DNA of 64,000 nt from Paraspadella gotoi (Eukaryota; Animalia; Chaetognatha), in NCBI GenBank assembly GCA_051294375.1, contig CM119265.1, forward strand, positions 21,514,278 through 21,578,277, written 5' to 3'. The first letter of the stretch is position 1. The number at the start of each line of letters is the position of its first letter. The notes under the pieces were generated by a model, which ran no database searches, was not told the DNA's origin, and saw only the letters and a list, made by a program, of their open reading frames with translations. Below, piece by piece: positions 7,701 to 56,116 of the stretch. The position numbers and the translations under genes are program-made.

Positions 7701-10700
7701 TCGTAAAGAAAATGGAGCATGTGTTCAAAGCGGTCGTTCACGATGGGGTAAAAAAGGAGCGAGATTTTCACGCTTAAATATTTTTTTTTTCGCCATTATT
7801 GATAATCAACAATTTGACAGGATACCGTTTCCGTTCATCGCCCCGATTTTTACGCTGAACGTTTCCTCGATTTCGTTCTGAAAAAAGTGTTCCGCAAAGT
7901 GCAATCACGTAAGTGACGTTTTCAATCCTATCTTTTTTCCCATTTCCTTCCTTCCTTCCTTCCTTCCTTCCTTCCTTCCTATCTTTCTCTTACCCCGCAA
8001 TCCACTCAGAATGGTTTTTTTTTTATACTTTTTTGCATTCTCGTGAATGTCATGAATTAAATGAACATGCTCGCAGAGTTTTTGCGCATTCAACATCGCT
8101 TTGCATCAATTTTAGTCGCTATTTTTGCTTGTAGTGGTTATTTGCATTATTAGAATTCCCGCTTGAAACAAACCCCTGAACTGGGAATTTCTGTTATTAT
8201 CTTATGAAGCGTCGGAATATATTGAATAATAAATAGTATAACAAGTTAATTTTTAGTATTTAACTAGACGGTCAAAAAAATTTCAGCGAGCTTACCAAGA
8301 AAATATCTTTGCTATTCTGAAGTGGATACTTAGAATTTTGGAAAAAAATATATTTAGAAATACCCATATTCTCTGTGACGTTCCTGTTATATCATATCCC
8401 TACCGCATTAACAATTAACCAAGTTGTACCTCTCTTTAATAAAAAAAGTGGATCCCCCTGATTCTGCGGAATGCACTGGAGTTCAAAAATTCCGCAAGAT
8501 AGCGCTTGGTGTCGTCGCTTCTGAGGGTAAAAAAAATTAAAATAAAAAAATGATCGTCCCGATTATTTTTTTACTTAATGTAATCACCTTAAAAGATTTA
8601 AGTACAATTATTTTTTTTCTTATTTTTCCTTGTGTACTAAATTATTAACCTTCAATCAGTCCACTTATACGCAACGTTAATCGCTATTTTAAGTATATTT
8701 TATGGTTCATCATTGGCACCGCTTTTTTCAGACTTTTGGACGTATGACCTTTTTACGCTCTTATATGCCGTGTAGTTTCATTTTTCTGGGGTCATTAATT
8801 GTGGTAATGCTAAAGTGAACATTTACATACTTTTGGAGCGGGTTCTGCAAGTTTTTTAATATTTTTTCCTTTTTACATTTTTATTCCTTCCCTTATGATA
8901 TTTTTTCGTCTGCATGGTGCATCTTTTATTCGCATGACATCAAACTTTACCAATTGCTTCTCGCGTTGTCTGGTAAAGTGGATCCCTGGCCGGCGCGCTC
9001 TCAACAGTCAATGTTTTCGTCGATAAGAAAAAAGGTTTCGAGTCGTTCACATACCAGCGACGGTTCAAAAGGGACGAGTAATTCTGAGAAACGGAGGGAC
9101 GGGATCAGACCAAAATGTGGCGCGAGTTGCTCTTTGTGTCTTCACGGTGCTACCAAACAAAAAGTTGGATACAATCGTAACAGAAGTAGTGAAAGAAAGC
9201 CAGGTTGGGGCTTACTAACTTTCTTAAATCATCCAAGTTAATTAGGCATCCTTGTCAAGTCTGACGGCCTTAATGCATATTATTATCAAGAATTTTTCTA
9301 AAATAGTATTTGTTATAATCCTGATTGATGCAGATGGCACGGTAAAACTTTTACCGCCTTATTCGAATTTGTCATCACGGACAAAATTACCGCCACAAGT
9401 GTCCTTCGCTACCACATTAGCCGATAATGTTATAGCCACCCCAGGCTCTCTTCACCTGCATCCGGATATGCAGGGAAAATACGACTATTCCCCCCATGGA
9501 GGGTGAGACCAAGTTTTACTGCTGTGTTGCGAATTTGTTTATAGTATCTTCTCGTGTTTTTTTTTTCGTCGCAATCTCCTGCGCTTGCGACGATTTTGTG
9601 ACGATGGTCCCCATAAATGTCGTTGTCGTCGTCGGCGTTCCAATTATAGATCACCCTTTCTTAAATTATTGGTAATTGTATGAAGTTGAAGATTTAGACA
9701 TATTCTCATCAAGGTTCTTGAAAACTGATAAGGTACTACATTAAATGTGATTTATTGATTTTATATAAACAAAAAAAAATTATTTTATTTATGTCTCTTT
9801 CTCTCTGTCTTTTTCTCAGTCGCTGCCTTTTCTGATTTGTCCAAAAACGAGTTGAGCTCCGCAGCGGCTGAACGTTACGCGTCTCTCTCTCACTCGCTCT
9901 CTTCTCTAACTTTTTTTCTCTCTATTTCTTTTTTTTCTTTCTGTCTCTCTGTTTTTTTATTAAAAAAAAAATTGTATCAGCATCGAACTCGTGATGTTAA
10001 GAATGGCAGTCGCACATGTTATCATTTCACCATCTTTTCCTTTTTTTTTATTTTTTCATTATCTCTCTTACATTTATTCATTCAATTTCTTCAATTAAAT
10101 TAAATAAATTAAATTCGTTTAATTTAATTAATTCAGTTCTTACTTTTAAGTTTATTTATTCAATACAATTTATTTATCTCAATTCTTTTTTTTTTAGAAT
10201 GAAATTTAAAGTTAAACTTAATTCATTCATATTTATTTTATTTCATTTTATTCATTTCATTTTTATTTATTTATATTTATATTCATTTATTTATTTATTC
10301 TTATATATTAAGCCAAGTTTATGAATAAAACTTTTTGTATCAAATATGAATTTTTGTTTGAGTTTCAAAGTTTGTCATGGGTCCATAATTTTTATCTGCG
10401 ATTACGACGATCCTTATACTTTTAAGATTTTTTTTGAGGCCTCTCTGACGATCAGTGTTATCATGTCCCACATGATGGGCAGTAGTCTAAGTTTCTTTTG
10501 CGAGCAGCCGAGGAGGTATATATACATATTGAATGATGTAAACGAGTTTTGTTTGTTAGTGTCGTCGAATTAAAGTTCAGCGATGTTGCAGGGTTTTAAC
10601 TCTCTCGATGAATCGTCGCCCTCATTCTTTCTATGGTATGCGATCATGCGCCCTTCCTTCCCCTACCGCCTCAACCCGGCGGAGACGGTCGCATCTCAAC

Positions 10701-13700
10701 TCCACTTGAAGTCCACTTTCTCACGAATTTTTGACTTGGCGTCTTTTTCGTTTTTTGCTTGCTTATTTATACGTCTTTAGTTTAGAATTTGATTATGAAT
10801 ATATGAGGAAATTAAACCGTAATTAAAGGTAATATTTTACTGTTGTTAGATTTGAGTTTTGAAGTTTTTTCCTTCGTCTCCGTCTTCATTGCTGTTTTTG
10901 CTAATGCGTCGAATGTTTTTATCTATAGTTAACGGGTTTTTTAAATTTTACTAATGATTTTCGTAACAAAACACATGCAAATACAAATAAAATTATAAAA
11001 CTTTTATTAAAAAAGCATTACATATGAATCGCGGCAGCATAGTGGATCGATTAGATCGTTTAAAGTAATTCTGTTGTAAAATTAAGATACGTAAAACCAA
11101 TTCACAAACGCCATCAACGCCTCATCCTGTTAACTTTTTTTGGATACTTTTGCTTCCGTGATTCATTAATTATTTAACAACCAGATGATCAAAAAACATA
11201 GTGCATGTGGTACAGACGTTTGGTTTAAAATGTTTTCTTTCATTTACACATTTTAATTCCACTTTTATTCTTGTCCGCAACTTTCTCTCCCTAGCCCTAA
11301 AAAGTTCCCCCTCGAAGCGTGGCAAGATGTCGCGTTTCGGACGGCAGTCCGTGTCGGTCGACGTCGCCGCAGTGGGTCCCAGTAGCGAAACACCACAAGG
11401 AGGCAAGTGACAGATTTCATCGAAGAAAGTATCATCTAACTAGTTCGGAATTCATCCTTTTTAGTTTTGTTGGCTGGCAAGAATGTCTCCGAGACCGGAA
11501 GTAAGTTATAAGTCCATACGCTGAAGTCTACAGACTTGCTGATCTTCCTCCTTACTTTACTTCCCAAGAATCGCCGTTGATCAAAGTCGCTTCGGTTTCT
11601 CCGGCTGTTCGTATGACCGGTGTTCCGGAAGAGTCCCCCCGGTCGAATGGCGAGACGGCTGGATTAGCCGCTGCGCCCCCGGCCGTCGGTGGAAACCTTC
11701 CTAAAAACGGCGTCACGTCCGATTCGTCGTCTTCTGGAATTTCCTCGGCGGGGCAGACCACCTTATCTCATCTCTCGCCTCAACTCCGGTCTTAAAATTT
11801 TATTAATGATTAATCCGATATCTTTCTTTCAATAAACCAATCGTGTCGACTTTCACTTCTTCAGGCGAGTCCTCAGTCCAGAGCCGGGCGCGGGCGGCGG
11901 AGTTGCCTGGTCTCCTCCCCACAGTTGGGCTGGATCCACTCCGACTCACACCGAGGGCACCCCGTCCTTCACGGAATCCAGTTCTTCGGAATGGATCGGG
12001 GGTGAGAAAATGACTGAAAAACTCTGGTCGACGCCGTTGCGCTCTTTGGTCCTTTCAGAACCACTGCTACTCTTCCCCTTCCCTTCGCCGCAGACCTTTC
12101 GCACGGATCCGAAGCCATTTACCCTCCCGACCACCGAAAATCTGAGACATCCGTCGTCCCCCTTCCGGCCGATCCTCGATCTGGCGACGTCGGTGGCGCC
12201 ACCCTTAACGGAAACTCTTTCGACGAGAGCCGAACGCCGACGCTGACTCCGAGAGAAGGCGGTTCGCTCGACCTGACCCCGACGGCGGAGGTGAGAAACA
12301 AGGGGTTTGGGGGTGCAGAGTTGAGCGATTTCGGTTTCTTTTTACGTTGAAGCTCGCGTCCACCGATAAATGTCCGTAAATGGCTTGGCATGAAAATTTA
12401 AGGTTCGATCTTTTGAGAATTAAGTTTGTTTCTTCACTACCGACTCAAGACGTCGTAGATTGTATTCAATTTCTGTGTTTTTCATCTCGTCGCTTTTTGA
12501 TTAGTTTATTTTTTTGTTTTTTCATAGCAGCTTCAATATAATATACGGCAATTAACAATAATTAATGTCTTCTCGTTCCAAATTTTTTATTCCCCTTTTA
12601 TTCTTGCACGCGAACCAACACTTAAAAATCGCTCAGCCCATATAATCTTCTATCGTTCGACACTCTTCACCTCTCTCTCCCCCCCTCCTTTTCTCTTGTC
12701 TCTCTCTATAATGATAATTTCGTCGATTCTCGCTCGATTTGTCGACGTGTCCCCTTCGGACCATGGCCACCCCAACAATTTAAATGTCATCCGCTGATAG
12801 TCGTTCATGCATAATTAAGCATATAAACTCGACTGTAATCGAATAAGAAATTCGGAAATTATTGTTTAACACCAACTTAATGCTCTTTCACCAGTCATTA
12901 GAAGCTTGCAATCACGACTTGGATTAGGTAAAAATAGCATGTTTTTTCCTTTTTCCTGACCCTTCTATTAATATCGTGAGCCGTCTTTTTGCCACTTCAA
13001 CTTCCCCTTCCAAAAATTCAGATTTTTTTTTCTCTTTGCTTACACTTATTTTAACCCCTAAATAGTGGTCATTATCTTGGGACGAATCTAAGCATGTTAT
13101 TATCTTATATTGTCAGTGAGTGAATTGTTTCCATACATGGCTATATAGTATATACTGACTTGACCGAATAGTTCGCGGAGTTTCTGTAATTTTATCTCTA
13201 GCAAAGTTTTATCATAATATAAACAAGGGCTTTACAATTTGCTCATTTGATAATATCGTGAAAATCTTTGTCGGTTTTAGAAATTTTACATCTACATTTT
13301 ACATCATTTTACCATCTTTAAGTTTAACTATCTTTAAAGTTAAAATCTTTGCATTCATACGGTAAGTCTGGAATTAAGTAGAAGGCAATCAAAACAAAAA
13401 CAATTTTATTAACAGGTCTAAAAAAGATAGGTTGTGGACGCGTCCAAAAGGTAACAACGTTTTTCCAGAGTTCAAATGTTCAAGGCAGAAAAAAAAATCA
13501 CTAACAAGCGTCTTATTCGGTTAAGAGGTGACTTTTATGCTACTAACTGACTTAAACTGAAAATGCAGCCATAGCTAATTTAGATCTGTACTCACTATTT
13601 TCTGGAACTACCTTTAGGTTCGCAGACTATAAATCCAAAATTTCTGTCCGTGATTTTTCCATTTCAGCTCTTTTTTGTAGAATGCATATTCGTCCGTTTC

Positions 13701-14189
13701 TTTCTTCTCCAGCTGCCCCATCCGCCTCTGCCTTCCCACCCGACATCCCTGCGTCCCGCCCCCGTCAGCCGCGCCCTTTCCTCTGACCATCATCGCGCCC
13801 CGCCTCTGCACGAGGCCTTTTTCGAAGGCGCCCTCTCTGCCCCTTCCCCTGTTGAGGACGAAGCGGCTGTCATTGCCGCAGCCCCATCATTTTCGGAACA
13901 GCTCCGAGCGCATCGTGAGTCTCTCACGCGTCCCTCCCCACCCTCGCTCGCTTTAATTACCGACATCGATTCGGCGATGGACGAACCGTCGCCCGAACGT
14001 CCCGCCATCTACATTCCGAGAGCCGAACTCTTCACACAACTTCATCGAGAAATGGAGGCGGCCGAGTCGACGTCTACCCCCGAACGAAATTCCCGTGCCC
14101 AACACCTGTTGGCTCGACAAGAGGCTTTGGCAGGGGAGGCGTTCCGCGACGAGGACGACGTTCCGGAAATGGAAATCACGTATTTGTGA
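1739..14189 (+). CDS. PIP5K1: Type I phosphatidylinositol-4-phosphate 5-kinase (multi-exon; gene span)
   Basis: Spliced exons give family motifs: [14 protein letters not shown] (~3126-3168), [13 protein letters not shown] (3301-3431), [18 protein letters not shown] (4688-4804), [42 protein letters not shown] (4930-5082), [24 protein letters not shown] (5626-5817), [50 protein letters not shown] (11294+). The first and last exons are inferred from GT-AG phase and composition. Confidence 0.93.
7061..7136 (-). ncRNA. Twister ribozyme, type P5 (copy A)
   Basis: Minus strand reads AGCAGT-TAA-GAGG-GA-CGG-GGTGCT-TAA-CCC-GC-C-TGTAACA/TGTTACA-CCCTGA-T-CCG-AA-GC-TCAGGG-ACTGTT. P5 is AGCAGT/ACTGTT, T1 CGG/CCG, T2 GC/GC, P3 7 bp, P4 6 bp, and the conserved UAA and GA are present. 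P2 is short. Predicted cleavage U|A between 7112 and 7111. Confidence 0.8.
7138..7210 (-). pseudogene. tRNA-derived head (degenerate cloverleaf) directly upstream of twister A
   Basis: 72-nt unit with acceptor stem GCGGCCA/TGGTCGC, T-arm-like GGGTTCTAGCCC and anticodon-loop-like CTCCCAA. The D and anticodon stems are broken, so it is not called as a functional tRNA. Confidence 0.7.
9960..10030 (-). repeat. Degenerate tRNA-derived interspersed repeat; related copy at ~54242-54310
   Basis: Both copies read ttaaaaaaaaaattg..t..g....gaactcgt....ttaaga.t.gca.t....catgttatcattt next to CT-rich tracts. The minus strand has B-box-like GAGTTCGATGC / GAGTTCAAGCC. Confidence 0.45.
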
Positions 14190-16869
14190 AATTATGTTTG
14201 TCATCCTCCTATTCTTCCCTCACACCCATTCAAAATCCCAACTTCATTTCCAGTTTTTTTTTGTTTTTTTTTCGCGCTATTTCAGTTTTTCTTTTTTTTT
14301 AATTAACCGCCCGAAAGTTCGTTTACTTCATCCGCCATATCCCGACTCCGATGGTTTTTCAAATTTTTTGGGCGTCATTTGAATGTTTTTATTTTTAAAA
14401 AATATAAAGATGATGTAGACTGGCCGAGCGTAATGTATCAGTCGACTATGTACGAAACGTTCTCGTACTGTTTTACGAAATTATCCGTAAAGAGCATAGA
14501 AAGCGAAAACTATGATTCAAGTTTTTCTGTACTACCTGTGTTCGTCAACTTGCAACATTTTTCTTATCTTTTCCATTTACCCCTCGAATTTTTAATATGC
14601 GAGACTGTACTTTAAAAAAACGATTTTTTTCCTCCTTTTATTTACCTTTTGTGGTGTTTCCAGTTATATCCAGCTAGCTGTTATTGTTTTTCCCCAAATT
14701 TTGTAATGACACACACAGAACAGTAATAAGAAATTAATTCAGCGGTAATCTATGCAAATTATAATTATATAGATTTCACAAGAATTGTGTCACAACCACT
14801 ACTCTTATACTTTAATACTTTCTGCTTTCGGAGTTCTCAAATACATTGTGTAGTACTTTTAAAAAAATTGGAGAACATAACTAACTAGATGGTGAATTTG
14901 TGTGGTGCAACACATTGTGATAATCTTATTCCATTCAATTTTAATATTATATTCTTTTTCAGTTCAAATTCTCATAAATGTATTACTATTATATCATTCA
15001 GCATCACTGCTGAGGCCTTATATCACATCATAAAAATTAAGATCCCAAATATTTGATCACACACTAAATTCGTTTATTTAATTTACCAAATCTGGCTTAA
15101 TTATTGCTACTGAGTAGCAAAAGTTGTCAACGTGATTAAGCTTTCGTCGCTTATGATTACTTTGTCAGAGAAATGTCTATATCATTCTTATTAATATCAT
15201 TAATTATTAAAACCAGTCCTATTAATTTAAATTTTTTTCATTTAATGCAATGCTGTATTTTTACTCATAGTCAGTCGTATATAATTTAAAAAATCATTAA
15301 CTAGTTTGGAGTCGGCAGATATTTGGCAGCACCCATCAACCTTCCATAATATTGCAAGTCAGCTTTTAAATAATTGTAATTTGTAATTAAATTTAAAACA
15401 TACTTTTAAGTAGGCCTTCTTCCAGATTGCCATAAATTTAGGCATTATTGTTGTTGTTATTATTGTTAAGCATTATTTAGGCTGAGATTACGGATTAGTT
15501 GAGAATTAATAAAATTATAAATCGGGTTTAAATTATGCAACATGATTAGGAGTAGCTTAACTCAGTAAGGTGGTTAAGAAATTTAAATTAATTTTTTAAT
15601 ATTTATTTATAAATAGGAACGGTTAAAAATTTTTTTAAGATTTTTTATTTTTAAGATCGGATTCAGGTAGCTTGCAAAAAGTTGTCTACACAAAGTATAA
15701 TTCTTTTTTCGATATTTTGATGTGGGTGAAAAATATGAAAAACTATTAATAATCATCATCATCATATTTCAATAATTTTATTACTTATTTTTAATTTTGA
15801 CCAAGAAAACGTAAGAATTTTGGAAAGTTGTAGTTATATATTTTTTTTTATTTATTCAACTTTTTATGCTTTATCAGAATAGGTCAAAAAAATTTAAGAT
15901 TGATTTAAAAAAATGTTATTATTATTTAGTAAAATTATTTTTTTACCTAAAAGTAGACTTCAAGACTAAAGTTTTGAACCCCCGCCCATATTGAATTTAA
16001 TTTCATAGTAGATTTCTAATATGATGATTTTTCTGTTTTTGAAATTGTCAATGGACTTATGAGGGGAAAAAAAATATGTGTTCTATGCAAGATACTTCCC
16101 CTTCAAACTGTCTGTGACACATTTCAAATATTATAAATATAAATGTGGTATTCTCCTTTGCGAGGAAGGAATATGTTGTTTTGTTTCTGGTCGAGGGCGC
16201 TGGTTTTTATTTTAAAAAATCGAAAAACCTTAAGTTCCTGGGATTTAGTCTGCTTTTACAAGATGTGCTTGTGTTGTGCACATTTTTTTCTGGGTTTGTT
16301 CTTTGCCTGCTTAAGTTATCTTAAGCTTAAGTAAGATTTTAATTTTCGCAGACAAATCATGTGCTTGTATGGCACAGTAAAATCTGCTACGTAACTATTT
16401 TCCCAACAAAAATATTTTTTTAAAATTTTATCATTAATAATTTTATTATTAATAATCATTAATAATTTCCGTAGAATTAGGCCCAAAATGGCTCTACTGG
16501 ATTTTCGAATCCTTAACGAGATAATTATAATTAGAAACAAAAGTTTTTATTCCCCTGAAAACAAAACTGTTCGGACAGTAAAATTAGGAAGGGGCTCCTT
16601 GAGTAACTTTTCAATCTACCCGTAACTAAAGTTATGTGCTAAAAGTTAATTGATTTTCGAAATTAAGATGTATTATATTATCTAAAAAAATTATATTTAG
16701 CTTTAAAATTTGAACAATTATTTTAAGAAGTATTATTAAAAAAAAAAAATTCTTCATAAAAAATATAAAAATGAATGAAAATATAGATATAGGTGAAATT
16801 ACACTAAGTAGGCTTAGTCGTTCTTACATTTTTTTAACCATATAAAAAATGCGTTAATTATATAGAGTT

Positions 16870-17128
16870 CTGTGGCAGCAAGACTTAAAGCTGCCTCACT
16901 GCTGTCCGTCCTCAGCCTCGTCTCAATGGCTGAGCAGGCTAAATCATCTCATTCCATCCGTGCGTCCCAGGTTCAATCCCTGGGTATCCCGGTTCTGGCT
17001 TAAATGTGACGGTGCCGGTATAAACATGCCAGTGACAGGAGGCGGTCACTGAGGGTCCGCAGCCCCTACGCCAGTTGGTGAGATACCCCGCGCCCCGGGT
17101 ATCACAGGCTATCCTCCCGTTGCCATAG
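16870..17128 (+). mobile_element. SINE/retrozyme-like element: A-box/B-box tRNA-like segment plus twister ribozyme inside a closing four-way junction (copy B)
   Basis: A box TGGCTGAGCAGG (16927-16938), B box in T-arm CCCAGG-TTCAATC-CCTGGG (16966-16984), twister 16995-17074, and 3' end GTTGCCATA shared with the copies at 35286 and 35697. Confidence 0.75.
16995..17074 (+). ncRNA. Twister ribozyme, type P5 (copy B, best preserved)
   Basis: P5 CTGGC/GCCAG; P2 ATGT(17004-07)/ACAT(17024-27); GA 17008-09; T1 CGG(17010-12)/CCG(17057-59); mini-P1 TGCCGGTA; TAA 17021-23; T2 GC/GC; P3 CAGTGAC/GTCACTG; P4 AGGG/CCCT. All consensus elements are in the right order. Predicted cleavage 17021|17022. Confidence 0.88.
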
Positions 17129-18208
17129 TTCAAACTTAAATTTATGGGTTTTAACCATTTTTATCGAGTGTATAAACGAGATCGTGATGGTTTCGATTGA
17201 AAGCTTGCAGGGATCTGTTACGTCATTATCTGTCCAAAGTCTGGTGGCAAGATGCTTATTTATTAAATGAATATATAATTTCATTGCTTTTCTCAGGTGA
17301 TGCATTGTAATATTATTAGCAATCACTTGTAGAGTTGGGTCGGATTTTATTCTAAATCGCTTGACCCGACTCCTTCCAAGAATCTTTTCGAGCGACACAA
17401 AGGAAAAACGCGGATCTCAACAAAGAACTGGAATATGACGAGCGAGAGGATGAGAAATCTCTCAACGATTCTGATGACGTGGAATTCGGAAGGAACTCTT
17501 CGTATTCAGCCTCGAATGACAGAAAAAAAAAATCACTTCTTTCCTTTTGGGATGTCATTCATTTGAATATCAAATTGTAAGCCTCGCGATTTTTCCCCCC
17601 GATTGCGTGCGTCGGTTGTATAAAAACTTTTTTCCTTTTTTTCAATTTTACTTACATGTCGCTAATTTCAAGTTTTTGTGAAAAATTCTTTATCCGTACT
17701 CTTTACAAATATTTTAATTATTAAAGCTCTACCCGGACAATTTAACTATAAATTTCTTTCTTTCTTTATTTTTAAACTATAAATTTCTTTCAAAATAAAA
17801 AATATCCTTAGTTGGAATTTTGTTAATATTTATTTAAAATGTGTATAATTTTTGCCAAAATAAAAATCGTTTAACCCAATAAATATAATATAATATAAAA
17901 AAGAAACTAGATCAAAGTGAAACTGATAGCTGACAAATCCGCTCGTCGAAGACGCCTGTTTCTTTTTCCCGTTCAGGGACGCGGTCGTAAATTATTTTTC
18001 TGAATCCTCGGGAGATCTTGCGGTTCGAACCGGTTTATTTAGTTTTGTTTTTTTTTTATTTCGTTTTCAGTTCGGAGCTTGACACGGATCTTACAAATCT
18101 TATACCCGGAACAGTTTCTAAAAAAAACAACAACAAAAAAACATTTACGATTTGTTTGGGAAACTATTCCAATGAAGATAAAAATAAAATAAGCAAACTG
18201 GATAGAAA

Positions 18209-21200
18209 ATGGCGGCTGCATCAGACGGCCCCACCATCTCCGGTGCCCTGAACCCCTTCGACGAGTACATGAGCGACTCTGATGACGACGTGAGTCAATA
18301 AATAATTATATAATCATAAAAGCAGGTCATCTTTCTCTTTATTTTTACTCTTTTTTGAGTATCGTTAATTTCGCCATGTTTAAATACCTCTTTCCATTAC
18401 TTATTCAGTCGCCTTCGTCAATGGCCTCGGGCTTAGACCGCAGAGCGAGCGCCTTCTTCACCTCCGAACCCAGCGGCGCCCATTCCGATCTAACCGGAGA
18501 CGAGAAGGAACTTCTCTCCAAGCTGGAAAGAGAGAATAAGTGAGTCTAATCCTTATTGACTCAATAATTCGAAGCCTCGAATTACGAGCCATCCCTCTCT
18601 TAAGGCGCCTCGAGGAGGATCGAAAGGCGGCGACGACGCTCTCGGCGGCGACGCACCTTGTTCCGATCGGCGTTAACCTGGCGCGACGCGCGTCCGGAAC
18701 TTCACTCGTTTCGTCCAATTCCAACAGCAACGTCGCGAGTGAGTATATAGGGTAGTGCGGGGTAATTCGGAACAGGGGTAATTTGGAACACTGCCATATA
18801 GAATTAAAATAATTATGTACTAATCTTCTAATTTTTTTAGTTTTATTTTATTTCACCAACTTGACTTCCATAATTAACGTTACAGCATTTCGCAATTTCA
18901 AAGCTGCGAGTCAAATTTCGTCTTTGAGTTGTCGTTTTCAAGCCTCTGACAGTCATATTTGACGTAATATGACTTTTTAATATTAATATATAACAGACGA
19001 GACTACTAATTTTTAGTTCTTAAATAGTATTAAAAAAATAATTCAATTATTTTTTACATAGCTACAATTAAATTGGGGTAAAACGGAACACCTGTAGACT
19101 GTGTAGAGTTTTGCGTTTCCTCGTATGCTTTTTATAATGTGTTAGCGGTAACTTTACTATTCGACGACCGAAACCAACCTTAGCTACCACCAGTCAGTGG
19201 TTTGTTAATCGATTAAATTTTGTTTTCCCCTCTAACGTAGAATCTCAGTTTGCGCAGGAATATAAATTTTTGTTAAGTTTTATTAAGAAACATAAATTTC
19301 GGACATGTTTCGGATTCAATGAATCTTAATTCATATGTCAAAAAAAGAGCGGTATTAAAAATACATTGATGCCGTAGAATGCTTGAGAATATTTTTTTTT
19401 ATATTGTAAAGTATCAATAAAATTTACAAGGCTCCGGGTAACTTTTCTGTGAAAGACAATGCATTATCATATTATGCAGCAACATTTATCCCTTACTTTA
19501 TAAGGGATAAATCTTTTTCACTACTCGCCAAGGACCATTTTTGCCACAAATCTGATAAAAAATATTATGTCAGAGATATAATATTAATAATAATATGAGT
19601 AGTCCTCTTGATCAAAAAAAAAAATAAAAACAGTTAGAGATGATAATAATAATAATAATAATAATAATAATAGAGAACTATTTTTATGCTGTTGAGAACG
19701 AATCTTTTTATTCAGTTTTAGGGAGGTCTTAATATATATCAAAACCTATTTAACGGCCAAAAAATGTTTGACAATGAAATTAACCGACTTTTCCAAACCG
19801 CGACAATTTTTTATTCCATTATGGTATCATCCCTTTGCTTAAAAGTTTACTAAATTTTTTTTTTAATTTCAAACCGTGAAATTTTTAAAATATTGTGACT
19901 TTAGTCACTTCAAACAAATGCTTCTGCTTCTCCCTGAAGGTTCGACAGAGGACCCCAATTCTGCGGAATCGTCCTTAGAAGAAGATCGTTGGAGCCTCTG
20001 GGGAAAGATCGTCAACGATTGGGACTCATATCGCAAAAAAACAGCCTTTGTTAAGGTAGGTTTTACTTTAAGAGAAAAGAGATTTCAAAATAACATAAAT
20101 CTGGGGACTTCGCCTTATCTTACAAATTTTACTATTGAAGGTTCTTGTATGTTTGATATTTATATTATTTTATAGGTTAATACTCGACGGTTTACGTTTG
20201 CCGTTTAAAAAATTCTTAACGGATACTACTGTAAATTTTCTGAGTCCAAATCATTTTTATACAATATCAACAATTTATTTTTTTTTCGTTCATTTTCTGG
20301 GATTGTCCCAATAAACTGATTATTGAAAATGTTGAATAGAGAAGCAGAGTTTATTACGCATCCCTTCCAAAACTGTCGACTTTCTGACAGCAGCAAAAGA
20401 GGAAGGAATGGCAGCATTCCTTATGAGGGCGGTCGCAACAGCATATAACACTTTCCCTGGACACTTTGAGAAAGTCATGGTTGCCGAAGGAGAATTATTT
20501 AAATAGATTGTATTCTGTTAATATTTTTATATATATATACCAATTTTCGCCAAATTGTCGTCGCCGCAAGATATTATTTTTTTTTACCCGTTCAATTTTT
20601 AATTTCGTCCCAAAAGTCCTGGACCTCCTTGTATATAAAAGTGAACAGGAAAAAAATTAAATGATAAAAATTGACTTTTGTTTTTTCAATTTGAACTCCT
20701 TTCAATTTTCACATTTTTCATTTTTCACATCTCAATTTTGTATGACTATGAGTTTAAAAAATTGTAAGGGACAATACAATCTTTTAAAAAAACCCCATCT
20801 GGAGTGAAGACCTTTTGCAAGCACTGAGCAAGCTTTTGTTACCGCGCCCGGTAAGAAAGCTTCCATTCCTACCACTGTGACCGCTTTCAGAAAATGGAGA
20901 TATGTAGGAGACACGTTGGACTTCTGACTTGAGCACCTCTCATTCTTAAAAGTCTAGGGTATCACAATCAGGAAAACAGGGGGGTAACAATTCCGGTTTC
21001 GTTTTTCTCTTGATTTCTGCTAAAAAAATTTAAAATTTTGTTTAGGAATGGCGCGGAAAAATTAGACATGTGATGGAAGAAAAATAAAGTAAGACAGTTA
21101 TCGAACAATTTTTAGGTCAAATCTATCGATCGAAACCTCTGTCGAGCTGTCAGTAAAACTTTATCAGAAAAAAGCTGAACCTCCCTGTAAAATATTTTCT

Positions 21201-24200
21201 TTTTTTTTAATAAAACATCTGTGGGCTCGTTGGAATTAAATATTAATAGTTCACGGTGATTTTTTTTTCTTAACAAAACAATATGCTAACAGTCAAGGCT
21301 TTGAATCGCGAATATTCTCTGTATTTCAGATCTTCTTTCAATTAATTTTTGGTAACTTTACTGATTCTCGCTTTGATCGACCTTTCTGATTTTTCAAGTT
21401 TGGACGAACGTTACCCTCGCACAAAATCATCTTTTCTCTTTTTTGTTCTGCGTGATGGTCCTGTGAAATGTGTTTTATAAGTTTTAAAACTGCGTGGCTG
21501 AGCAATTGCTTAAAGGTTGAAAATCATTTCTCTTTTATACCTTGACACACTGTGGAATTTCAGGAAGCACTTCATCCTCCGCCATACTTGGAATTAGCGG
21601 CACGCAGTGGTATACTGCTAACTAAAATTACCCAATATTTCGATTATTTAAAAACATTTTTTGCTAAATTTGTTTTACCTGTCCCGCTTCAATCCGAACC
21701 AACTTTTTGTAATCCAGAGGTTCCTTATATCTCTGTATAGGATGGTAGGTCTTGCCCAAAATATCACTAGTTGGCGGTACTCCAGGCCATTCCTCCGTTT
21801 CTCTTTCAATTTCCATTAATTTATGGCTATCATCTACTTTGTTACCTAAATTCGGGAAAGCTGAACTCATTTTTAAGTTCGGTAAACATTTTCTTTCTGC
21901 TTTCTGGGTAACTACTTTTATTTATTTTTATATAGTTGTAGAGAGTACCCACCTGCGAACAACCATTTTACTCGTCCTATTGTCCCGTTTTTTTACCGCT
22001 ATTTTTATTTATACTATCTCTTAAACACTAGTATTATTTTCATTTAAAGTCTCAATCTTTACCTTGGCAGTATCATGACATAACTAAACCTTGTTTCATG
22101 TTGCGAACCTGCAAATCTCACGCACCAAATCAGTATGATATTTTTCGCGTATTTCCAATATGGGCATGAGCCTTGGTTGTAAACCCTGTGTTATTAAATT
22201 TTTTAACTTTTTTTTTTTTATCTTTCACTACTATTGAAACCTTAAAGAAAGGGCAGAGGCAAGACGTAGTAAGTCCGATTTTACATGACGTTTGTCTGAT
22301 ATTTGTCGTCGCGTCACGTTTATGCGATTTTTTTCCTTGGCTGCCGCTGCCTCTATTTGAGAATCGGTTAGTGTAATGAGCGAGCCCCAACTGTCAACTT
22401 GATCGACAACCTGTTATAATAAAAAATCATTAGTTAATCTAAAGTTAATCAAATGAATACCTCGCACTTACTGATTCCACTTTCTCTTCCGAGGGAGCTT
22501 TGATTAATTCCGGTATATCCCATGGCAAGGATTTTTCTTGGCCAAATGCCCCTATATAGCTTCCAAGTATTGTCCATAGCCGAACGGTTCCTGAACTACT
22601 TGCAGAAGCCACTAACTCCTGATTTTTAAGAATTTTTTCAATAAAGTAAATTTTAACAGAATATTTGATATGAATAACTAACCTTTTCATCAATAAATTG
22701 CACTGCGACTGTGCTTTTAACATGCGCAAGCCAGCAATTAAGCCGTAAAGGAATTTTCAGAGTTTCGGCATCGAGATGTGATGGTAAAGAATCGGCGAAG
22801 GAGGAATATGTTTTATAGCGCAGCTTGGCAATTGATAGCAAATAGGGAAACCTTAAGCGATATAATTTAATTTGAATTTTTTTCTGTCGTTTATTATAAT
22901 GTTATATGATTTTTTAAAAGCTTTACCTTTGGAAATAAGGGTGTGCTTCTAGAACTTCATCCTCATCCTCCATTGTGCACAAAACCTGTTTTCCTTCTTC
23001 GCACCACCCACTAATATCCCATATATGAAGGTGGCCAGTGCTACATTTATAAAAAAAAATTTATAGATTGTTTTACAACAGTGAAAGTTGTCAATAAGTT
23101 ACCTATCTCCTATAAAAAGCATAGTTTCCTTTTCATCAACATCGATGCACATTATGCCACTTGATTCATTAAAGGCAGCATGGAACTGACCAACGAGGCC
23201 ACCTTGAGGATGTGTTGACCAAGCCCTAATCTGGCATTAGTATTAATTTTTTATTATAAATATTTATTTTTGAATATGATGGTTTTGATTAAATATTTTT
23301 CGTTCAATTGTTAATCTAAAGATGCTTCACAAGCTTATTTGTGTAAGGCTATTACTACGACAGAAATGCCTCAACTTTTCGTCATTTGAATTTACTTACC
23401 CATCCCCCTGAATCAGCTGCAATTAGTGTGGCGGTTAAACGCTTCTGTTCTCTAGTTTTTAAAAAAATTATCTTCTCTATCTGAATATGTAATAAAGCTA
23501 GATTGATAATAATTCGATAATATCTGAAATATTTTTTTTTACCGCGTTTCTGTATTTGTCAGACTCGACATCAACATCATAATTATTTATGGTTTCTGTT
23601 GGAACTTCAATAATTTGTTCTGCACCAATGCATACTCCATAAGGATTAATCTATGATTATTCCCGTGAAAATAAATAATTAAATTAAAATCATTTATTAA
23701 CTGCTGTTATTTCTCACCTTGTCTTTGGCATCTTCTATAGTCCTTCTCATTAATTTTCCGAACACTGACTGTGGATAATCTAAATATGACATTGAGCTAT
23801 TCTATTATACCCGTTTTTTTTTGTTGAATCGTGAACGTCGTAGTGGCGGTTTTTTTTTTATAATACCAAGTGTTATATAGGTTATATAGGTTTTGATTGA
23901 AAATTAAGTTACCTGGTTCTTCAAAGCCTTGTGAATGTGTAGATGTTTTAGCTATTGGGGGTAATATTATTCCCTTTGTTGTGTCAGCCGGTATATTCGA
24001 ATCTGGGCCAGACATTTCACTTTGTCTTGATCCTTTTCGTCGACCATCTGTTTTCATTCAATATTTAAAATTTATTTAAAACTGTTTTAGATGTACCATT
24101 AGATCCAGTTCTCCTTTTATATTAACTATCAAATGATCCTGGTGATGTTTGTAACTTTGATGGTGTGAGAGAAGGTTTTGATTTTGTATCTTGCCCGGCC

Positions 24201-27200: not shown

Positions 27201-30200
27201 AAAAACAAAACCTTTTATTGTCCATGAAATGAGCCATACCTTTGATCATCTCTTCAAGTCGTATAACTTGAACTTCTGTTTGTTTTTTATACCTTCACAT
27301 AAATAACCTATTATTATAATTTGTAAATACTTTTCTTAATACTAATTTTATTATTAGAAATTTCTCAAAAGATTGAAGTGTTCAAAAGATTTTTACATTA
27401 TAAATACAGTGACGTGATTAATCTTTCTTTCGTTTTGTTTGTGTTATTTGAGATTAAATAGGACTAAGCTCTGACGAAAAAAGCCAGAGGTTTTTTTAAT
27501 ATATTCTTTTACCGGCCAATGTAGAATGATGGCAATATTGCTATTGTTAAGTTTCAAAAAAAATCCGACCATAAATATAGAAAATATTAACCAAAATCTT
27601 TGGAAAATCCACCCCTTCTTTGGAAGATTTTCACCATAGACGATTTTTATTGAATCTGACTCCCGGTTGAAAACTCTTAAAATTCCGATCATTAGCTCCT
27701 CTTTTACTTTTACTTTAAATAAAAATTTCACCAAAATGGACTAATTCATTTTACCATGATTGTATCATATTAATATAACCAAATAAAATGTGAAGAAAAA
27801 TTTTGAGAGCACGTGGGCAATAGACTTGTGGAGTCCCACACTTCGACCACAGGCACTTCGATGGACTTGTGGACAACTGACGGAGGCGGTGACAGAGGCT
27901 GACACCCTCGACGACAAAGGGTCTCGGCGTCACTCGCGACGGCACCACCAAAGGGGCGCTGGATGCGGCCGCGCCCACTTCCGGCGACGAGGGGAGTTAA
28001 CGGCAGTCTCCCCCAGTAATGGCGCGACGGGTCATAGGATGGAGATAAGCCTGGCAAGGCAGTCTGACTACTAGTTCCTCGACAGTAAAAGGGCCTTATT
28101 TGTGTCTTCGTCCTTTGGGGTCATAGGACGGAGATATGCCTGGCGAGGTAGGCTGACTACGAGTTCCTCGACAGTGGAAAAGTAAAAGTCAGTGGATCAA
28201 TTTTATTAAAAGTATCAGAAATTGTGGATCAACAATGGTTCTTTAGGTTTGTTTTAAATTTGTTAAAAATAAAGACTATAATAAAGATATTACTGTAGTC
28301 GGGCATTGCATAAGTTCACCCCGCCTATGAGCATGACACCTTCAGTCGTGACTCGGTTGCTCATTGAGTAAAGCCATCAGCTCATGACCACTAGGTACCA
28401 GGTTCAATCCCAACCCGGTACCTACCCTGCGGGAAGCATGAGGACGGCCGTAAGCCGCCTTGGGGGCGTGGAAAGCCCTCAAGCCTGATTCCAAGCCCAG
28501 GACCCGTTCCATGGCTGCTAGAGGGGGTCATAGAAGTTATGGATAGTCATCTTCAGCCCACATAGCGCCTTATCCACATTAGCCATTATAATAATTATAG
28601 GTATCAAGTATATTTAGCAAAGGAGGAATTGTTGTAAGCAGAAAAAAGGCACAATAAATCTTAAGATCATAATAGATATATTATATCAGTTTCACACATA
28701 TGGATGATTCATAGGCCTTAATATACAGTAAGAAAGATGAAATAAAATGACTATCGCCAGAACTGCTGCTGGTGAATTTTTGCGCATCATTTTTGGGAAT
28801 CAAGAATGATCAATTTGTTGAGAGAAAATCTATTTGCATCTCCTGTAACCAGAGGTTTTGCGAGGAAAGCCTAGTTTTTGCGCAACAATAAAAAGAAATA
28901 TTGCTTTCTGTACTATTCCAATATTTTTCTTATTTGAAAGATTCTTTTTGGGTTTTTAGTTAGACTTACCCCTACAGTACCTAGATTTAAAAAATAAAAT
29001 TTTTCTTCTTAGAATTTTCCATACAGTAAATATTTCAAAAAACCTTGTTTTTTGGAATCAAATTCCCTATTATTTTTTGGTCGATAGAAAAAAAAAAAAT
29101 TCGTCGAATACTGCTAATCCCTATCTATGGCGAAAATCTTCCAAAGAAGGGGTGGATTTTCCGAGGATTTTGGTTAATATTTTCTATATTTATGGTCGGA
29201 TTTTTTTGAAACTTAACAATATCAATATTGCCATCATTCTACATTGGCCGGTATAAAAATATATTTAAACCTCTGGCTTTTTTCGTCAGAGCTTAGTCCT
29301 AACATTATCTAATATATTTTCTTACCAAATGTTAACCTCTGCTTCTCTCTCTCTCTTACAAAATTTAATTTCTTTTCCCTCACATTCTCTCTCTCTCTCT
29401 ACCAACTTAAACCTGTCCTCACATTTCACCACTGTTCTGTCTCACATCTTTGTTGGCCATTTTTTCCCTCTCTATCACTCTCTCTCTCTCTCTCTCCCTA
29501 AGTCAATTTTGAAAACATGAAAATGTGAATTGTCAAAGCATTGATGAAGGCTTGAATGTAAGCCAAAACTTGTCTGTACCACTAAAAATAAATTCGTTGA
29601 TGTAAAAAGACTGTCTTTAATCTCAAATAAATACAGTGACAAAAAACTAAGTTAACCTCATCGGGTTTTACCTGCACCATATAGTTTCAATTTAAGATCG
29701 CCAAAACAATTCATAATTTTGTAAAAACTATAAAAGTGTTTTTAATTATGAATCTAGTAATAATTTACTTGCTAGTTTTGGTAAATAAACCTGATCCATG
29801 CAAAGCTTCATGCCAGACAACAGCGGTGACATTTCCATTGTTGTCACCCATAATCATTATAGCTTGATTCATGTTATCTTTGTTAAACCAATAGTCAATG
29901 CAACCCAAGCAGGTCTCAAATCCGACGATGTGATAGCGTCTGAAAGAAAAATTTCAGAAAATTTGTTAAAAAACTAATTAAATAATACTTTATTTTTTGT
30001 GGATTACCTCCAAAAAGAAGTGCCGGTTGTATCATAAATATGGATATCACGATTGGTAGTTGTGGCGGCTATTGCATTAACATTAAGCATTGAACAGGCG
30101 TCAAGGATCCAAACCTATTTAAAAATCCCATGAAAACGAAAGGCCAATTATTTTTCTTTTCTATATTACCTTACTGTTCATTGCTTTACGAGTAGGAGTG

Positions 30201-33200: not shown

Positions 33201-36200
33201 TCCGAGCTTTTATTGAGTATTGCTCGTTTCCTTGAGCTGTTTTTTTACTGTGAAATATTGGTTTCTAGGAACTGGTGCGTCATGGCATTCCGAGGCCTTT
33301 TCGTGGGCTTGCTTGGCAACTCATATCTGGAGCGTACGATTCGGGATCAAAAGAATTATACAGGTTTTCACGAACCTCGTCTACCCATCGCCCTATCATT
33401 TTTAAATCAATACTGGATTAATTTTACTTTCGCCGACCGGGGTTAAGGGTGGTTTAGGGTTACGGGTATTTAGGGTTAATAGATAATAATTTTTTTTAAT
33501 TTTTTTAAAAATAAAAAGTTTAAATTGGTTTTTCAAAAAACGCCAAAACCCCGGTCGGCGAAAGTAAAATTTTGCCTCAATACTTTTTGTTTTTTCAGCG
33601 AATACATGAAACAGACTTCGCCGTGCGAGAAAATCATCCGGCGAGACATCGCGAGAACTTATCCCGAAAACGATTTCTTTCGTGAGAAGGATGGCTTGGG
33701 CCAGGAGAGCCTTTTCAACGTCATGAAGGCTTACTCTCTGCATGATCGGTTTGTAAATCTTTTTGCTTACTTTTCAATTATTTTTAAACCAATTATCCGT
33801 TGAAATTTATTTTCATTTTGTTTGCAGTGAAGTGGGCTATTGCCAAGGTTCCGCATTCATAGTCGGTCTTCTTTTAATGCAAATGCCGGAGGAAGAAGCT
33901 TTCGCCGTACTCGTTCAACTCATGCAGAGATTTCAGCTGAGAGAATTGTTCAAACCGTCCATGCAAGGTTATTGAATACTGTTCAGTATTCAGTGTATAC
34001 AGATTACATAGGCTTATCTGATAACAATGATCTCGGTCTCACTTCTTCTGTAAACTATGAAGCTTAACTTTTAAAGCATTTTCACGAGGCTCAAGGTGTT
34101 ATTGCATCGATTATTACTACTATTATTATTATATTAGAAAGATTTACTTTATATTTCAGAACTAGGACTTTCGATGCATCAGCTAGATTCGTTGGTCCAA
34201 GAGCAACTTCCCGATCTTCATGCACATTTCACTCAACAGAACTTTCATACTACTATGTACGCGTCGCCATGGTTTCTGACGCTCTTTGCCACCTCGTTGC
34301 CACAGGTACATATTTGCTTCTATAGTCTTATATTAACCTCAGCCCTTTCTGTTACTACATATTTGTATCTATTACATATGAAAATTTGCAAATTACTTGT
34401 TTCACTATTTTCTATTTTATATTTATGAAGGATTTAGTATTTAATCTTATTTTTAATCAAACATATATTGCTTTCTTTCTTAAAAATGTTTTATTTATCT
34501 AATAATTCAATTTGGGAAGGGGAAGTCAGTGTTGTCTTCTGGAAATAGAGGGAGCATCTATACAACACAAGGTTAGATTACTATCTGTCCTAGTTTTCTA
34601 ATAGATATCACACATCATTTCTGTTAGAAAGTCATTAATGAAAAATCATAATATCTAAGAGGCTGAACAGAAAGGGGTGGGAATGGATAATTTTTTAGGG
34701 GTTACCAAAGTTATATATGATTTTTTTTACCAATAGGGATAAGACTACCATGTAGAATTGTATGTTCTGATAGGGATACATACCGGGGAAAGGTCTATAG
34801 GGGCACCTTTATGTCATGAATATAATTTTAAAATTATATTTTTTCTTTATTCTACTTTTTAATTATTTCTTTTTTGAATATTTTTATCTTTTATTTTTAT
34901 ACAATGGGAAGGTCATCAGTTGGGAACCTATACCCTTCATGGATTTCGGCTCTTTAATCCCAATATCCAGGTATAGGCGAGCCATCACCAAATGGTGATC
35001 CTTCATTGTTGCTTATCTTATATTTTAAATGTATATCTTGAATGTTTATCTGAAACAGACCAAAGCCCTGGAGAAATTTTATTAAGGTTTTGTAATAATT
35101 TGTAATTTGTAAATAAATAAAATAAGTTAAATAATTAGTTTAATAATAAGTTAATAATTAAGGGTATGTTAATGTAAAGTTAACATTAAGTTAATTGGTA
35201 AAAGTTAAAAAATAAATTAAATCAGAGAGTTAAATATAATAAATATATATATATAAAGCAGTGTTTATTTTGAGTATTATAGTATTATGGCAACTGCCGG
35301 GTTTCCTGTGATGCCCATCTCACTGTTGGCTTTGGGGGCTTCTGACCCTCAGTGACGCCTCCAGTCACTGGCGCAGTTACTCTAGGACGGTCTTGCTTTG
35401 CCAACGCAGAGGGAAGACTGGATGGAACACAACGCCTGGGATGGTGTGTTCCCCCTCTGAGCCAATGGGATTGGCTAAACGATGATGGACATGAGGTGGT
35501 GTGAATATACCACCACAGGATCCCCAGTCCATCACTCGGGTTCCTCAAGCCTGAGAGGTGTCTGACAAGACTATTACCATAGTGGGAGAGAGAGAGCGAG
35601 CGCGAGTTGAGGGGGCATAGGCGTTTGTCGTAGCGTACCCAAAGTTGGCAGGGCATAGGCATTTGTCGTAGCGTATCCTGAGAAGGGCTCACCACTTATG
35701 GCAACAGCCTGCAATGACCTTTGGGATGGGGCATCTCAATGTTGGCTTTGGAGGCTTCCCACCCTCAGTGACGCCTCCAGTCATTGGCGCGGTTACCCTC
35801 GGACAGTCTCGCTTTGCCAACGCAGAGGGAAGTCGTTAGGACTGTGGGATGGTGTGTTCCCCCTCTGAGCCAATGGGATTGGCTGAACGATGATGGACGT
35901 GAGGCGGTGTGTATATCCCGCCACAGTATCTAATATTTCTTTAGCATTTTCGATTTCTTATGTTAATGTTTTTTTCAACTCAGGATCTTGCTGCGCGCGT
36001 CATGGATCTCATTTTGGCTGAAGGAACGATCTTTATTTTCCAAATGGGAATGGCTATACTACGCATGTCCGCTTTGGACCTCATGGCTCTCGACATGGAG
36101 CAAATGATTCGGGTGAGAAAATATATGGAGCCGAATGCGTGCAAGAATAACCTCATTTTATGAAAAAATTTGTAATCGAAAGAAATTCATCGTACACCTT

Positions 36201-50138: not shown

Positions 50139-50446
50139 TTCTTTAAAATTTAATTAAATTAATTTATTCGTACCATGTGACTTTTATGGAATTTTTTTAG
50201 ATGTTTAATGGTGGTTTTTTTTTTTCATTACAACAATTCGTTTTTCTGAAATTAGTGTGATTTTGTTTTTCTCTTTTTCTTACCTCGCTCTGAAAACAAA
50301 AGACGAAACAAGATCCGTTATTTCTTGTATGATTGATTTTTGTTGTAATGAAGCGTTTATTGGTTTCCAATTTTTTACTACGCTACCAGAACTAACTACT
50401 GAAATTATTACATTATCAGTTATTTAGTTGAAACAATTAAAAAATC

Positions 50447-51868
50447 ATGTCGGTTGTTGGGCAACCGACGGTTCACTTCCCCTCGGTCGATCCCGGGAAA
50501 GACCTAGGTGGTGATACTCAAAAGGACGGAATTTGTAGCGCCGCTTCCTCTGGGTACGAATCTCGAATTGACAGAAATGTTCCATCCTATGGTCAACGTT
50601 CGTCGTCCGAAGACGACTGGACGTCTGACGAAAGTTTTGGCGAAAAGGCTCAGGCTGACGACAACGCCGGTGCACAAACTGCGGATCCCGGCGATGACGA
50701 GGACGGAACTCCCAACGAACAAATCGCGACTGACGTCTTTGATCGTCAGCGTCGCCTAGACGACAAGTTTTTATTCCTTCCGGCGCCAAAAGTCATCCAG
50801 GACTCTAGATCGCCAATGCAACGTCTTCACGATTATTTGGCGAGTAAAGAGGCGAAGTCCGTTGATCCGACTCCAATGGCGCAACTGAAGCAATACTTGC
50901 GCAACAAAATCTCCGTCGGCTTCGAAAAGGCCGGAAACTATGAGCTTGACCCGTCGAACAACCGCGTGGACAAAAACGACGACGTCAATAAGACCTCGTC
51001 CAACTTCAGTCTCAACAGCCTCACCTCTCAGGAATCGGGCGTCACTTCCGCGACGACTCAAACTCTAGATTCCGCCGACGAAGTCTTTTCTCACACTTAC
51101 GTCTTGAAGCAGAAGCGACTAGACAAAATGCGCCGCAGGAGTTCGGCGCGGAGTCGGTCCAGCGATTCTGAGACGCGTTGCTGCTTCATTTGCAACCAAG
51201 TCGGCCACGTTGCTCGTCGTTGCCCCTTAAGGGCCAGCCGGAGTGCTTGTCCCCGTTGCCAAGCTCTCGTCGATCCGAATGGCAAGGAAAAAGTCAGAAA
51301 AGGTTCTCAAACGTACGTGCCTGAAACGTCCGTTTTTGAAGGGGTGGCCAAGGGCAGCCGATTTGACACTTTCGACTCCATTCCCATCACCTTAACTGGG
51401 CAGAAAACCAGCAATTTATGTAGTATTAAACGGTTCGAAGAAGCCAATTTGCACCAAAAGGTAAAGAGAGAAAGAAATATAACTCTATCAAGATATAAAA
51501 TTTATGTTTCCTCAAGGTGGTGGACAATGTTCTAAGCGAAAACTATGAAAAAGCGACTCCGGTTCAGCGCTACGCCATCCCTATCATCCTCCTTGGGCGC
51601 GACCTAATGGCCTGTGCCCAGACGGGCTCTGGCAAGACTCTCGCCTTTGTCCTCCCTATTCTCAGTCAGATATTCGGTCGAGGCGTCGCGAATATCGAGT
51701 CCAAGTCTCCACTAGCTCTCATTCTCGTTCCGACGAGGGAGTTGGCGTCTCAGGTCCACAAGCACGTGGAGCGATTCGGTCGAGGGACGGATATTAAGTC
51801 GATGACTCTATACGGGGGTACCAGCCTCGCCTTTAACGTGCAAAAGATTGAAGAGGTTATTTTATGGA

Positions 51869-51917
<49 letters not shown>

Positions 51918-53063: not shown

Positions 53064-53226
53064 CAACGGTTTTTATTTTTAAATTATGAGCCATAATGTC
53101 CACGGTTTCATTTTGCTTTTTTTTTATTGAATTTTTATTTTACGTGCTTTTAATAAATTTGAAATATATACTATTTTTTAAACAATTTTAAACACGCTTT
53201 TTATTTCTTGTCTTTAACAAGCAAAG

Positions 53227-55994: not shown

Positions 55995-56116
55995 AACTTT
56001 ATCGTTTATATTTTGGATTTATTTTTAAAGGTTTTAACTCTTAATCATGTCATGTCACGTTATACATTTTTGATGCTTTTTTTTACATTTACGTATTTAC
56101 CAAAAGCTCAGAGGTG

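Follow-up and report, generated by a model that had tools for sequence, protein, structure and literature searches.

The window, by which we mean the whole stretch of 64,000 nucleotides that was analysed, contains five copies (A to E) of a unit that carries a ribozyme fold. Host genes were recognized across 18210-36300 and 50441-63875; they include an EVI5-like TBC gene (identified by eye), whose introns contain copies C, D and E, as well as a vasa-like helicase, a lectin/EGF protein, a bestrophin tail and a divergent ribosomal S5-domain gene. Judged by one search with a vasa fragment, whose best matches reached ~60-68%, the host is an invertebrate-like animal. Copy B, to which the original prediction referred, is organized as follows, with all features on the + strand:

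16867..16870, left target-site duplication of copy B, GTTC
16870..16899, 5' arms of the putative four-way junction, namely the outer strand, a hairpin whose loop is AT-rich, and the inner strand
16871..17127, copy B, very probably a solo LTR; it reads TGTG...CCATA, and its ends are imperfect inverted repeats, TGTGGCAGC / GTTGCCATA
16927..16938, A-box-like motif, TRGCY..YGG as in PMC10886601
16970..16980, B-box motif GGTTCAATCCC
16995..17074, fold of a P5-opened twister ribozyme with P2 4/4 and P4 3/3; cleavage is predicted between 17021 and 17022
17010-17012 with 17057-17059, T1 pseudoknot, 3/3
17013..17020, loop-less self-complementary P1 segment, self-duplex -10.9 and hairpin +5.0 kcal/mol, predicted dimer helix
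17078..17107, 3' arms of the putative junction: inner strand, hairpin (pair probability 0.91-1.0), outer strand
17128..17131, right target-site duplication of copy B, GTTC

The other copies form one two-LTR element (E-D) and represent further families (C and A):

35926..35929, - strand, upstream target-site duplication of E-D, ATAC
35697..35925, - strand, copy E, forming the 5' LTR of E-D, with cleavage predicted after 35795
35518..35696, - strand, internal region of E-D, 179 nt, with a TGG primer-site-like start at 35694 and a short direct repeat
~35564-35586, - strand, segment within this internal region complementary to the LTR 3' end
35286..35517, - strand, copy D, forming the 3' LTR of E-D, with cleavage predicted after 35379
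35282..35285, - strand, downstream target-site duplication of E-D, ATAC
28294..28578, + strand, copy C, solo-LTR-like, another family, TGT...ACA, flanks TTAC/TTAG, B box; its ribozyme has a twister fold with palindromic P1 and damaged P2
7028..7243, - strand, copy A, LTR-like, another family, TAT...ACA, tRNA-like head, clean duplication absent; its ribozyme has a twister fold with self-complementary P1

The E-D element measures 640 nt (229 nt for E, 179 nt for the internal region and 232 nt for D); its LTRs share 194 identical columns, and it is decayed and CpG-depleted. An exact 4-bp duplication was found in two of the four insertions (B and E-D), while three of four bases agree in C and none was found in A; the chance of a 4-mer match in this window is 0.006 per site. 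Since these duplications are combined with sharp ends next to unlike flanks, and since the internal segment is present in RNA (see below), we concluded that copy B is very probably a solo LTR and E-D a complete, non-coding two-LTR miniature retrotransposon (TRIM). The 136-aa frame across E-D had no Pfam match, and no reverse transcriptase or integrase was detected among the 23 frames scanned of the 60 long frames. The purine tract before D is weak, consisting only of GGGGA three bases upstream of D. The LTR ends and the 4-bp target-site duplication speak strongly against reading copy B as a SINE monomer. At least four families of such elements are present within the 64-kb window.

The observation that GTTGCCATA terminates copies B, D and E proved correct. 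Because the two ends of the unit form imperfect inverted repeats, GTTGCCATA is the right end of the LTR, and it is likely an integrase site. The proposal that this terminus is recognized by a mobilizing enzyme is therefore probably right, but not with LINE, Penelope or rolling-circle machinery as the candidates: both ends are sharp and 4-bp duplications flank them, which makes the integrase and reverse transcriptase of an LTR retrotransposon the likely mobilizing enzymes.

Some of the surroundings deserve mention in their own right. Copy C is enclosed by a DNA element with long terminal inverted repeats at 27459-29301 (arms 94-100% complementary), which also contains a GC-rich piece at ~27830-28200 with a ~95-nt direct repeat. 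Copy A lies inside an AT-rich element at 6555-7295 with repeated TTAACGG motifs, probably a MITE. In the internal region of E-D, a motif of ~25 nt occurs twice, 41 nt apart, at 35595-35665 (- strand), and is a possible packaging signal.

Assembled contigs of the host organism were taken from a public run (X1), whose depth was not used for ranking expression. X1 is not on record as RNA, and its RNA nature is an assumption, supported by one contig that reproduces a host exon letter for letter and departs at the splice acceptor; since, in addition, intron bins are almost empty, X1 behaves as RNA. The family is present in this RNA. Cover on copy B starts at 16870 and stops at 17127, with six contigs departing before 16871 and ten behind 17127 into dissimilar flanks. 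One contig connects the B-type end at 17127 to 16870 via other letters, and in B-type two-LTR contigs a C precedes TGTG. AG-TGG follows directly after the LTR end in E, and AGTGG likewise in one B-type contig; a purine-rich loose end of the B type was seen in two contigs (0.65 agreement). The internal region of E-D is represented by many contigs with a summed depth of ~10,000-20,000, the same order of magnitude as the LTRs. In one further contig (depth 142), two LTR 5' ends are joined head to head with exact termini, corresponding to window positions 35518 and 35925. Contig cover of ~80 also runs from the end of copy B into the unique flank (17128-17220). No cover was seen upstream of B, and another, small contig comes from near an acceptor-like AG at 17167; copy B may feed transcripts into a host exon.

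The tRNA-type promoter boxes are preserved to different degrees. They are canonical in B; C has a good B box, A has a tRNA-like fold, and in D and E the B box is degenerate. ARAGORN called no tRNA. By eye, B and D/E both have an AT-rich loop, perhaps with a TATA-like role, ~40 nt upstream of the A box. No T4 stop was found on the sense strand, an absence that is not significant (7.4% of shuffles). The 5' arm had been placed ~55 nt upstream of the A box, so that a simple Pol III monomer would not contain it, and both statements hold, the A box starting 57 nt after the 5' arm. The consequence drawn from them, a read-through or circular RNA or a single-stranded DNA intermediate, can be kept for the RNA, while nothing calls for a single-stranded DNA hairpin substrate. 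The two-LTR structure explains this puzzle, because the 5' arm (U3) enters the RNA through the second LTR.

All five copies were identified as twister folds opened at P5 by an anchored dissection, from which the pair counts given here were taken (a MAFFT alignment misplaced A and C). The fold shares with the type-P5 twisters, a permutation named in PMC10085705 and PMC6765202, the UAA cut loop, the GC of T2, P2, P3, P4 with a 10-nt loop, the GAnnG strand, the T1 pseudoknot and the opening at P5. It differs from them in P1, which is a loop-less palindrome instead of a closed hairpin, and in the T1 letters, which are off the Rfam consensus in four of five copies. Besides the UAA cut loop, the general-base GA, P2, P4 and the pseudoknots T1 and T2 are present, and B is complete, with intact P2 and P4; P2 is damaged in A and C. 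The T1 pairing covaries over A, B, C and D/E: A, B and C each reach 3/3 but do so with three different, mutually compensating sets of letters, those at matching places being G-C or C-G, and C-G or U-A. D and E reach 2/3, and the X1 majority letters repair T1 of E at 35805 and 35760, both main variants pairing at 35760. Cleavage is predicted after the U of UAA, the site described in PMC8501958, that is after 17021 in B, 35795 in E and 35379 in D.

Between GAnnG and UAA there are 6-8 nt, too few for a P1 hairpin. Instead, P1 is fully self-complementary in three of the five copies (A, B and C), each with a different sequence. D and E miss the palindrome by one base each (35381 and 35800), and the X1 majority letter restores it in both (19168 of 19168 and 13007 of 13175 of the depth); a minor variant of the B family at 17013 (~11% of depth) breaks the outermost P1 pair. 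The calculated self-duplex energies are -10.9 kcal/mol for B, -10.7 for C, -11.0 for the majority form of D/E and -3.8 for A, with positive values for all hairpins. As a null set we used matches to a broader motif pattern (8 viral and at least 118 metagenome loci), none of which was a convincing twister among the matches listed: of these 126 listed chance matches, two had a fully self-complementary P1 and none combined T1 3/3 with P2 4/4. The family-specific pattern had no match in viral and metagenome contigs, and the canonical P5 pattern found five viral loci, three of which are ordinary P1-type twisters. Rfam models at gathering score returned nothing in the 64 kb, and nothing at E up to 5 in 16700-17300; below threshold, twister-P1 matched parts of D and B with 19.7 and 13.6 bits against 67.2, and there was no twister-P5 match. 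HDV-like, pistol, hairpin and hammerhead readings were dropped by eye, and Rfam gave no hammerhead call. Taken by its sequence features, the family has with high probability an active twister. Because its P1 is palindromic and has no loop, this twister probably acts in dimeric form.

The original prediction was that copy B closes as four flush helices around the promoter and the ribozyme. Indeed, CTGTG (16870-16874) pairs with CACAG (17103-17107) and CTCAC (16895-16899) with GTGAG (17078-17082), and the hairpins GCAGC..GCTGC (16875-16894) and ATACCC..GGGTAT (17083-17102) lie between them with no linker bases. The shortest helix of the best perfect junction in copy B has five Watson-Crick pairs, while all 300 dinucleotide shuffles gave two or three and none reached even four, in a test designed once the pattern had been seen. 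Since none of the 300 shuffles matches it, the junction of copy B is not a chance arrangement. The other copies had been said to keep the same topology, but perfect 5-bp helices are absent from them: the shortest Watson-Crick helix has two pairs in A, three in C, three in D and two in E, the fourth arm of D is ATG-GG-CAT with a 2-nt loop, and the 3' arms of E are mutated. At the same place, the inner helix of A has another sequence and 7 bp (probability ~1) and directly abuts the 5' hairpin; in C, an inner helix of 6 bp can be drawn, but the fold prediction does not contain it. In the D/E family, the X1 majority letters restore CTCAC/GTGAG at 35491 and 35739, and the outer helix of D extends 3 nt into the internal region.

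Covariation, on which the structure had also been based, did not withstand closer comparison. The outer and inner helices have nearly the same letters in B, D and E, and there is therefore no covariation between these copies. In the hairpin around the A box, the AGCC/GGCT core is invariant and only its extension differs, running outward in copy B and inward in the D/E copies. D and E differ by four paired changes, half of them in the 5' hairpin and half in ribozyme P2, and every one is a CpG-type transition. Seven of the 13 transitions between D and E are of this type, and the CpG observed/expected ratio of the elements is 0.40-0.68 as against 1.28 for the window; since the paired changes are CpG-type transitions in CpG-depleted elements, they are weak structural evidence. 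The depletion of the elements, but not of the window, suggests methylation aimed at these repeats. Variable ends or vanishing covariation had been named as outcomes that would speak against the structure; the ends are conserved, while the junction covariation mostly dissolves.

RNA folding gave a mixed picture, calculated with an energy model that contains neither pseudoknots nor coaxial stacking and on copies that are decayed. In the fold of copy B, the 5' arm is taken up by pairing with the terminal GTTGCCATA, which leaves three of the four helices at a probability of ~0; the junction can be forced at a cost of 7.3 kcal/mol. Without the last 12 nt, this cost drops to 1.9 kcal/mol, and the outer helix and the two hairpins are formed, most of their pairs at 0.7-0.99, with the inner helix reaching 0.29 in the best case. 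A circle made of D only prefers a rod, and forcing three junction helices in it costs 13.7 kcal/mol. The first C of CTGTG in copy B belongs to the target-site duplication and not to the LTR. A helix between the LTR end and the internal region has an energy of -26.4 kcal/mol (8 of 1000 shuffles were as good, and the other strand gave -18.0) and a probability of ~0.99 in a circle made of E only. In it, the internal segment 35564-35586 pairs with 35691-35716 (- strand), comprising the LTR end and the start of the primer site, and it may gate primer binding; such a pairing recalls the U5-leader pairing of retroviruses. Judged by these models, the four-way junction as drawn is possible but somewhat doubtful, and some end-clamping helix around the promoter and the ribozyme is the likelier structure.

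The closest relatives of the element by architecture are the Helenus TRIMs (TRIMp3; Kojima 2024, PMC10886601), which are described as non-coding elements of less than 1 kb with tRNA-type A and B boxes in their two LTRs, a TGG primer site 0-2 nt past the LTR, 4-bp duplications in animals, solo LTRs and several families per genome. Two LTRs, a length below 1 kb, the 4-bp duplication and the tRNA-type boxes are common to both, and the 0-2 nt spacer and TGG with which many animal Helenus internal regions begin have a possible counterpart in the AG-TGG after E and after the LTR end in one B-type contig. The Helenus TRIMs are further characterized by a primer-binding site that matches the 3' end of a host tRNA, a polypurine tract ahead of the 3' LTR, Pol III transcription and an autonomous Gypsy partner. 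In contrast to the LTRs studied here, which carry the twister fold, no ribozyme is reported for Helenus in the accessible text of that paper, where the word occurs once, in a reference title. Neither GTTGCCATA nor GGTGAGCCC is present in the text of its supplement, in which line breaks may hide motifs. In the same supplement, the LTRs Helenus-2_SyJa-LTR and Helenus-2_SyUm-LTR from Synergus gall wasps show on inspection by eye the complete core of a type III hammerhead, its loops complementary to each other, directly downstream of the B box; these are two of the eight occurrences of the hammerhead core heptamer in the supplement, and the accessible text passes over them without remark.

Ribozymes in LTRs are established in plants. 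The plant LTR retrozymes (Cervera, Urbina and de la Pena 2016, PMC4918200) have a ribozyme in each LTR, 4-bp duplications, a primer site and no R repeat after double cleavage, and a circular template was proposed to yield solo, unit or multimeric DNA. They possess a type III hammerhead, an internal region of 300-600 nt and a tRNA-Met primer, whereas the present element is from an animal and has a twister fold and a tRNA-type promoter motif; it has the ribozyme motif in each LTR (in all five copies) and lacks the type III hammerhead. According to the accessible part of a 2020 review (PMC7761336), animal retrozymes are without LTRs, PBS and PPT; LTR retrozymes occur mainly in plants according to a 2026 preprint, and for one plant LTR the promoter was mapped (PMC12029980). 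Dependence on a partner copy has a precedent in the dimer-cleaving hammerheads of Penelope-like elements, newt and viroid RNAs, in which a palindromic, too short stem forms only between two tandem copies (PMC6765202, PMC7761336); in the Penelope elements it is stem III that is palindromic, and they cleave as dimers (PMC6765202). They represent another ribozyme class and another retroelement class than the twister LTR described here. In the twister T-variants of Perere-3 from Schistosoma mansoni, a twister with reduced P1 serves a retrotransposon (PMC8501958), but it is of the P1 type and located at the 5' end of an autonomous non-LTR element, where the duplication adjoins the cut, whereas here the ribozyme lies in the middle of the LTR. 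The literature searched, mostly openly readable papers, contained neither a twister-bearing LTR element from an animal nor a twister that naturally acts as a dimer.

Putting these features together, we propose the following cycle. Transcription by Pol III would begin immediately upstream of the A box in the 5' LTR and pass through the internal region and the 3' LTR. The two twisters of this RNA would then pair P1 with P1 and swap halves as in double hammerheads, so that each active site would be assembled from a 5' half and a 3' half supplied by different LTRs, and one site would join the ends of the future unit. Two cuts would release a unit of ~416 nt (35794 to 35379) without a repeated R region, and P5, P2, T1 and the inner helix would keep the ends of the unit together for ligation in the nicked twister. 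Since a monomeric circle could not re-form P1, it would be stable. To the junction, the first LTR would contribute the 3' arms and the second LTR the 5' arms, after the internal segment has tied up the 3' tip of the LTR; the junction is likely part of a clamp that would hold the RNA ends after the predicted double self-cut. A Gypsy-type helper would prime on tRNA, copy round the circle and integrate LTR-internal-LTR or solo-LTR DNA, by extension from PMC10886601 and PMC4918200. A cycle of this kind was proposed for the plant retrozymes. Formation of an RNA circle seems reasonably probable to us. For the overall explanation, in which copy B is the solo LTR of a twister-bearing TRIM and the junction is part of an end clamp, our confidence is moderate.

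The main competitor to this explanation concerns the junction only and is compatible with most of the rest: the four-way arrangement could be incidental, made of two hairpins and weak complementarity of the ends, while the true fold pairs the terminal inverted repeats or forms a rod. We regard this as possible, though less than probable. The junction is perfect in one of the five copies only and is not the predicted minimum in B or in the circles of D/E; the paired changes of D and E are CpG transitions, and TGTG is constrained as an LTR end. The shuffling test, the inner helices of other sequence at the same place in A (7 bp) and C (6 bp), and the restoration of CTCAC/GTGAG by the X1 majority letters are difficult to reconcile with an accidental structure. 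Another reading accepts the TRIM but lets each twister cut as a monomer; P1 would be vestigial, the RNA linear, and end-pairing would guide the jump of the reverse transcriptase in place of the R repeat. Inefficient twister activity without P1 has been reported (PMC8501958), and no circular RNA was seen in the assembled contigs, a type of data that does not reveal circles. Monomer hairpins are unstable here (+2.5 to +6.3 kcal/mol), and the bases in the middle of P1, which a monomer would leave as an unpaired loop, are self-complementary in four different sequences, as in only seven of the 126 chance matches listed, so that we consider this reading unlikely.

Two further alternatives question the class of the element itself. 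In the first, it would be a non-LTR retrozyme, SINE-like or of the Penelope type, that is inserted by target-primed reverse transcription, and E-D would be a tandem dimer. Units made of promoter and ribozyme are known from Schistosoma, for example Sm-alpha (PMC6765202), and the X1 contig with two LTR 5' ends head to head also speaks in its favour. But the ends are sharp on both sides, ~150 and ~106 nt from the cut site, and ragged 5' ends, a tail or an end at the cut site are absent; moreover, the element has 4-bp duplications, TG/inverted termini and a separate internal segment starting with AG-TGG, while the animal non-LTR retrozymes are described as having neither LTRs nor PBS and PPT (PMC7761336). 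We therefore regard a non-LTR origin as improbable. It is still harder to believe in a mobile element at the DNA level, with a rolling-circle or single-stranded DNA intermediate and the junction as the substrate of the enzyme: all pairs of the B junction are Watson-Crick and either strand could fold, but strand-specific G-U helices, the twister fold and the abundance of RNA are evidence for action as RNA. Insertion of the Helitron type is also at odds with target-site duplications.

We thus retain the reading of a twister-bearing TRIM, and its most far-reaching version can be put forward only tentatively: animals would possess genuine LTR retrozymes that bring along a Pol III promoter, in which a double twister, active only once the two LTR copies of a transcript are paired through a palindrome, replaces the R repeat, the four-way junction pre-aligns the ends of the unit, and the resulting circle is unable to cut itself; at least four families of this kind would exist here, the gall-wasp Helenus-2 elements would follow the same design with another ribozyme, and the class would be hidden among TRIMs. 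If the dimer step is true, this would be the first natural twister that needs a partner copy. The ribozyme form is missed by Rfam, and such elements are therefore likely under-counted. An LTR with a ribozyme whose cuts would release an RNA circle is so far known mainly from plants, where the ribozyme is a different one. If our interpretation is true, it joins the Pol III-driven TRIMs and the LTR retrozymes, which have been described apart so far, extends LTR retrozymes to animals, and offers a small and abundant system for testing the long-proposed model of LTR reverse transcription from circular RNA without an R repeat.
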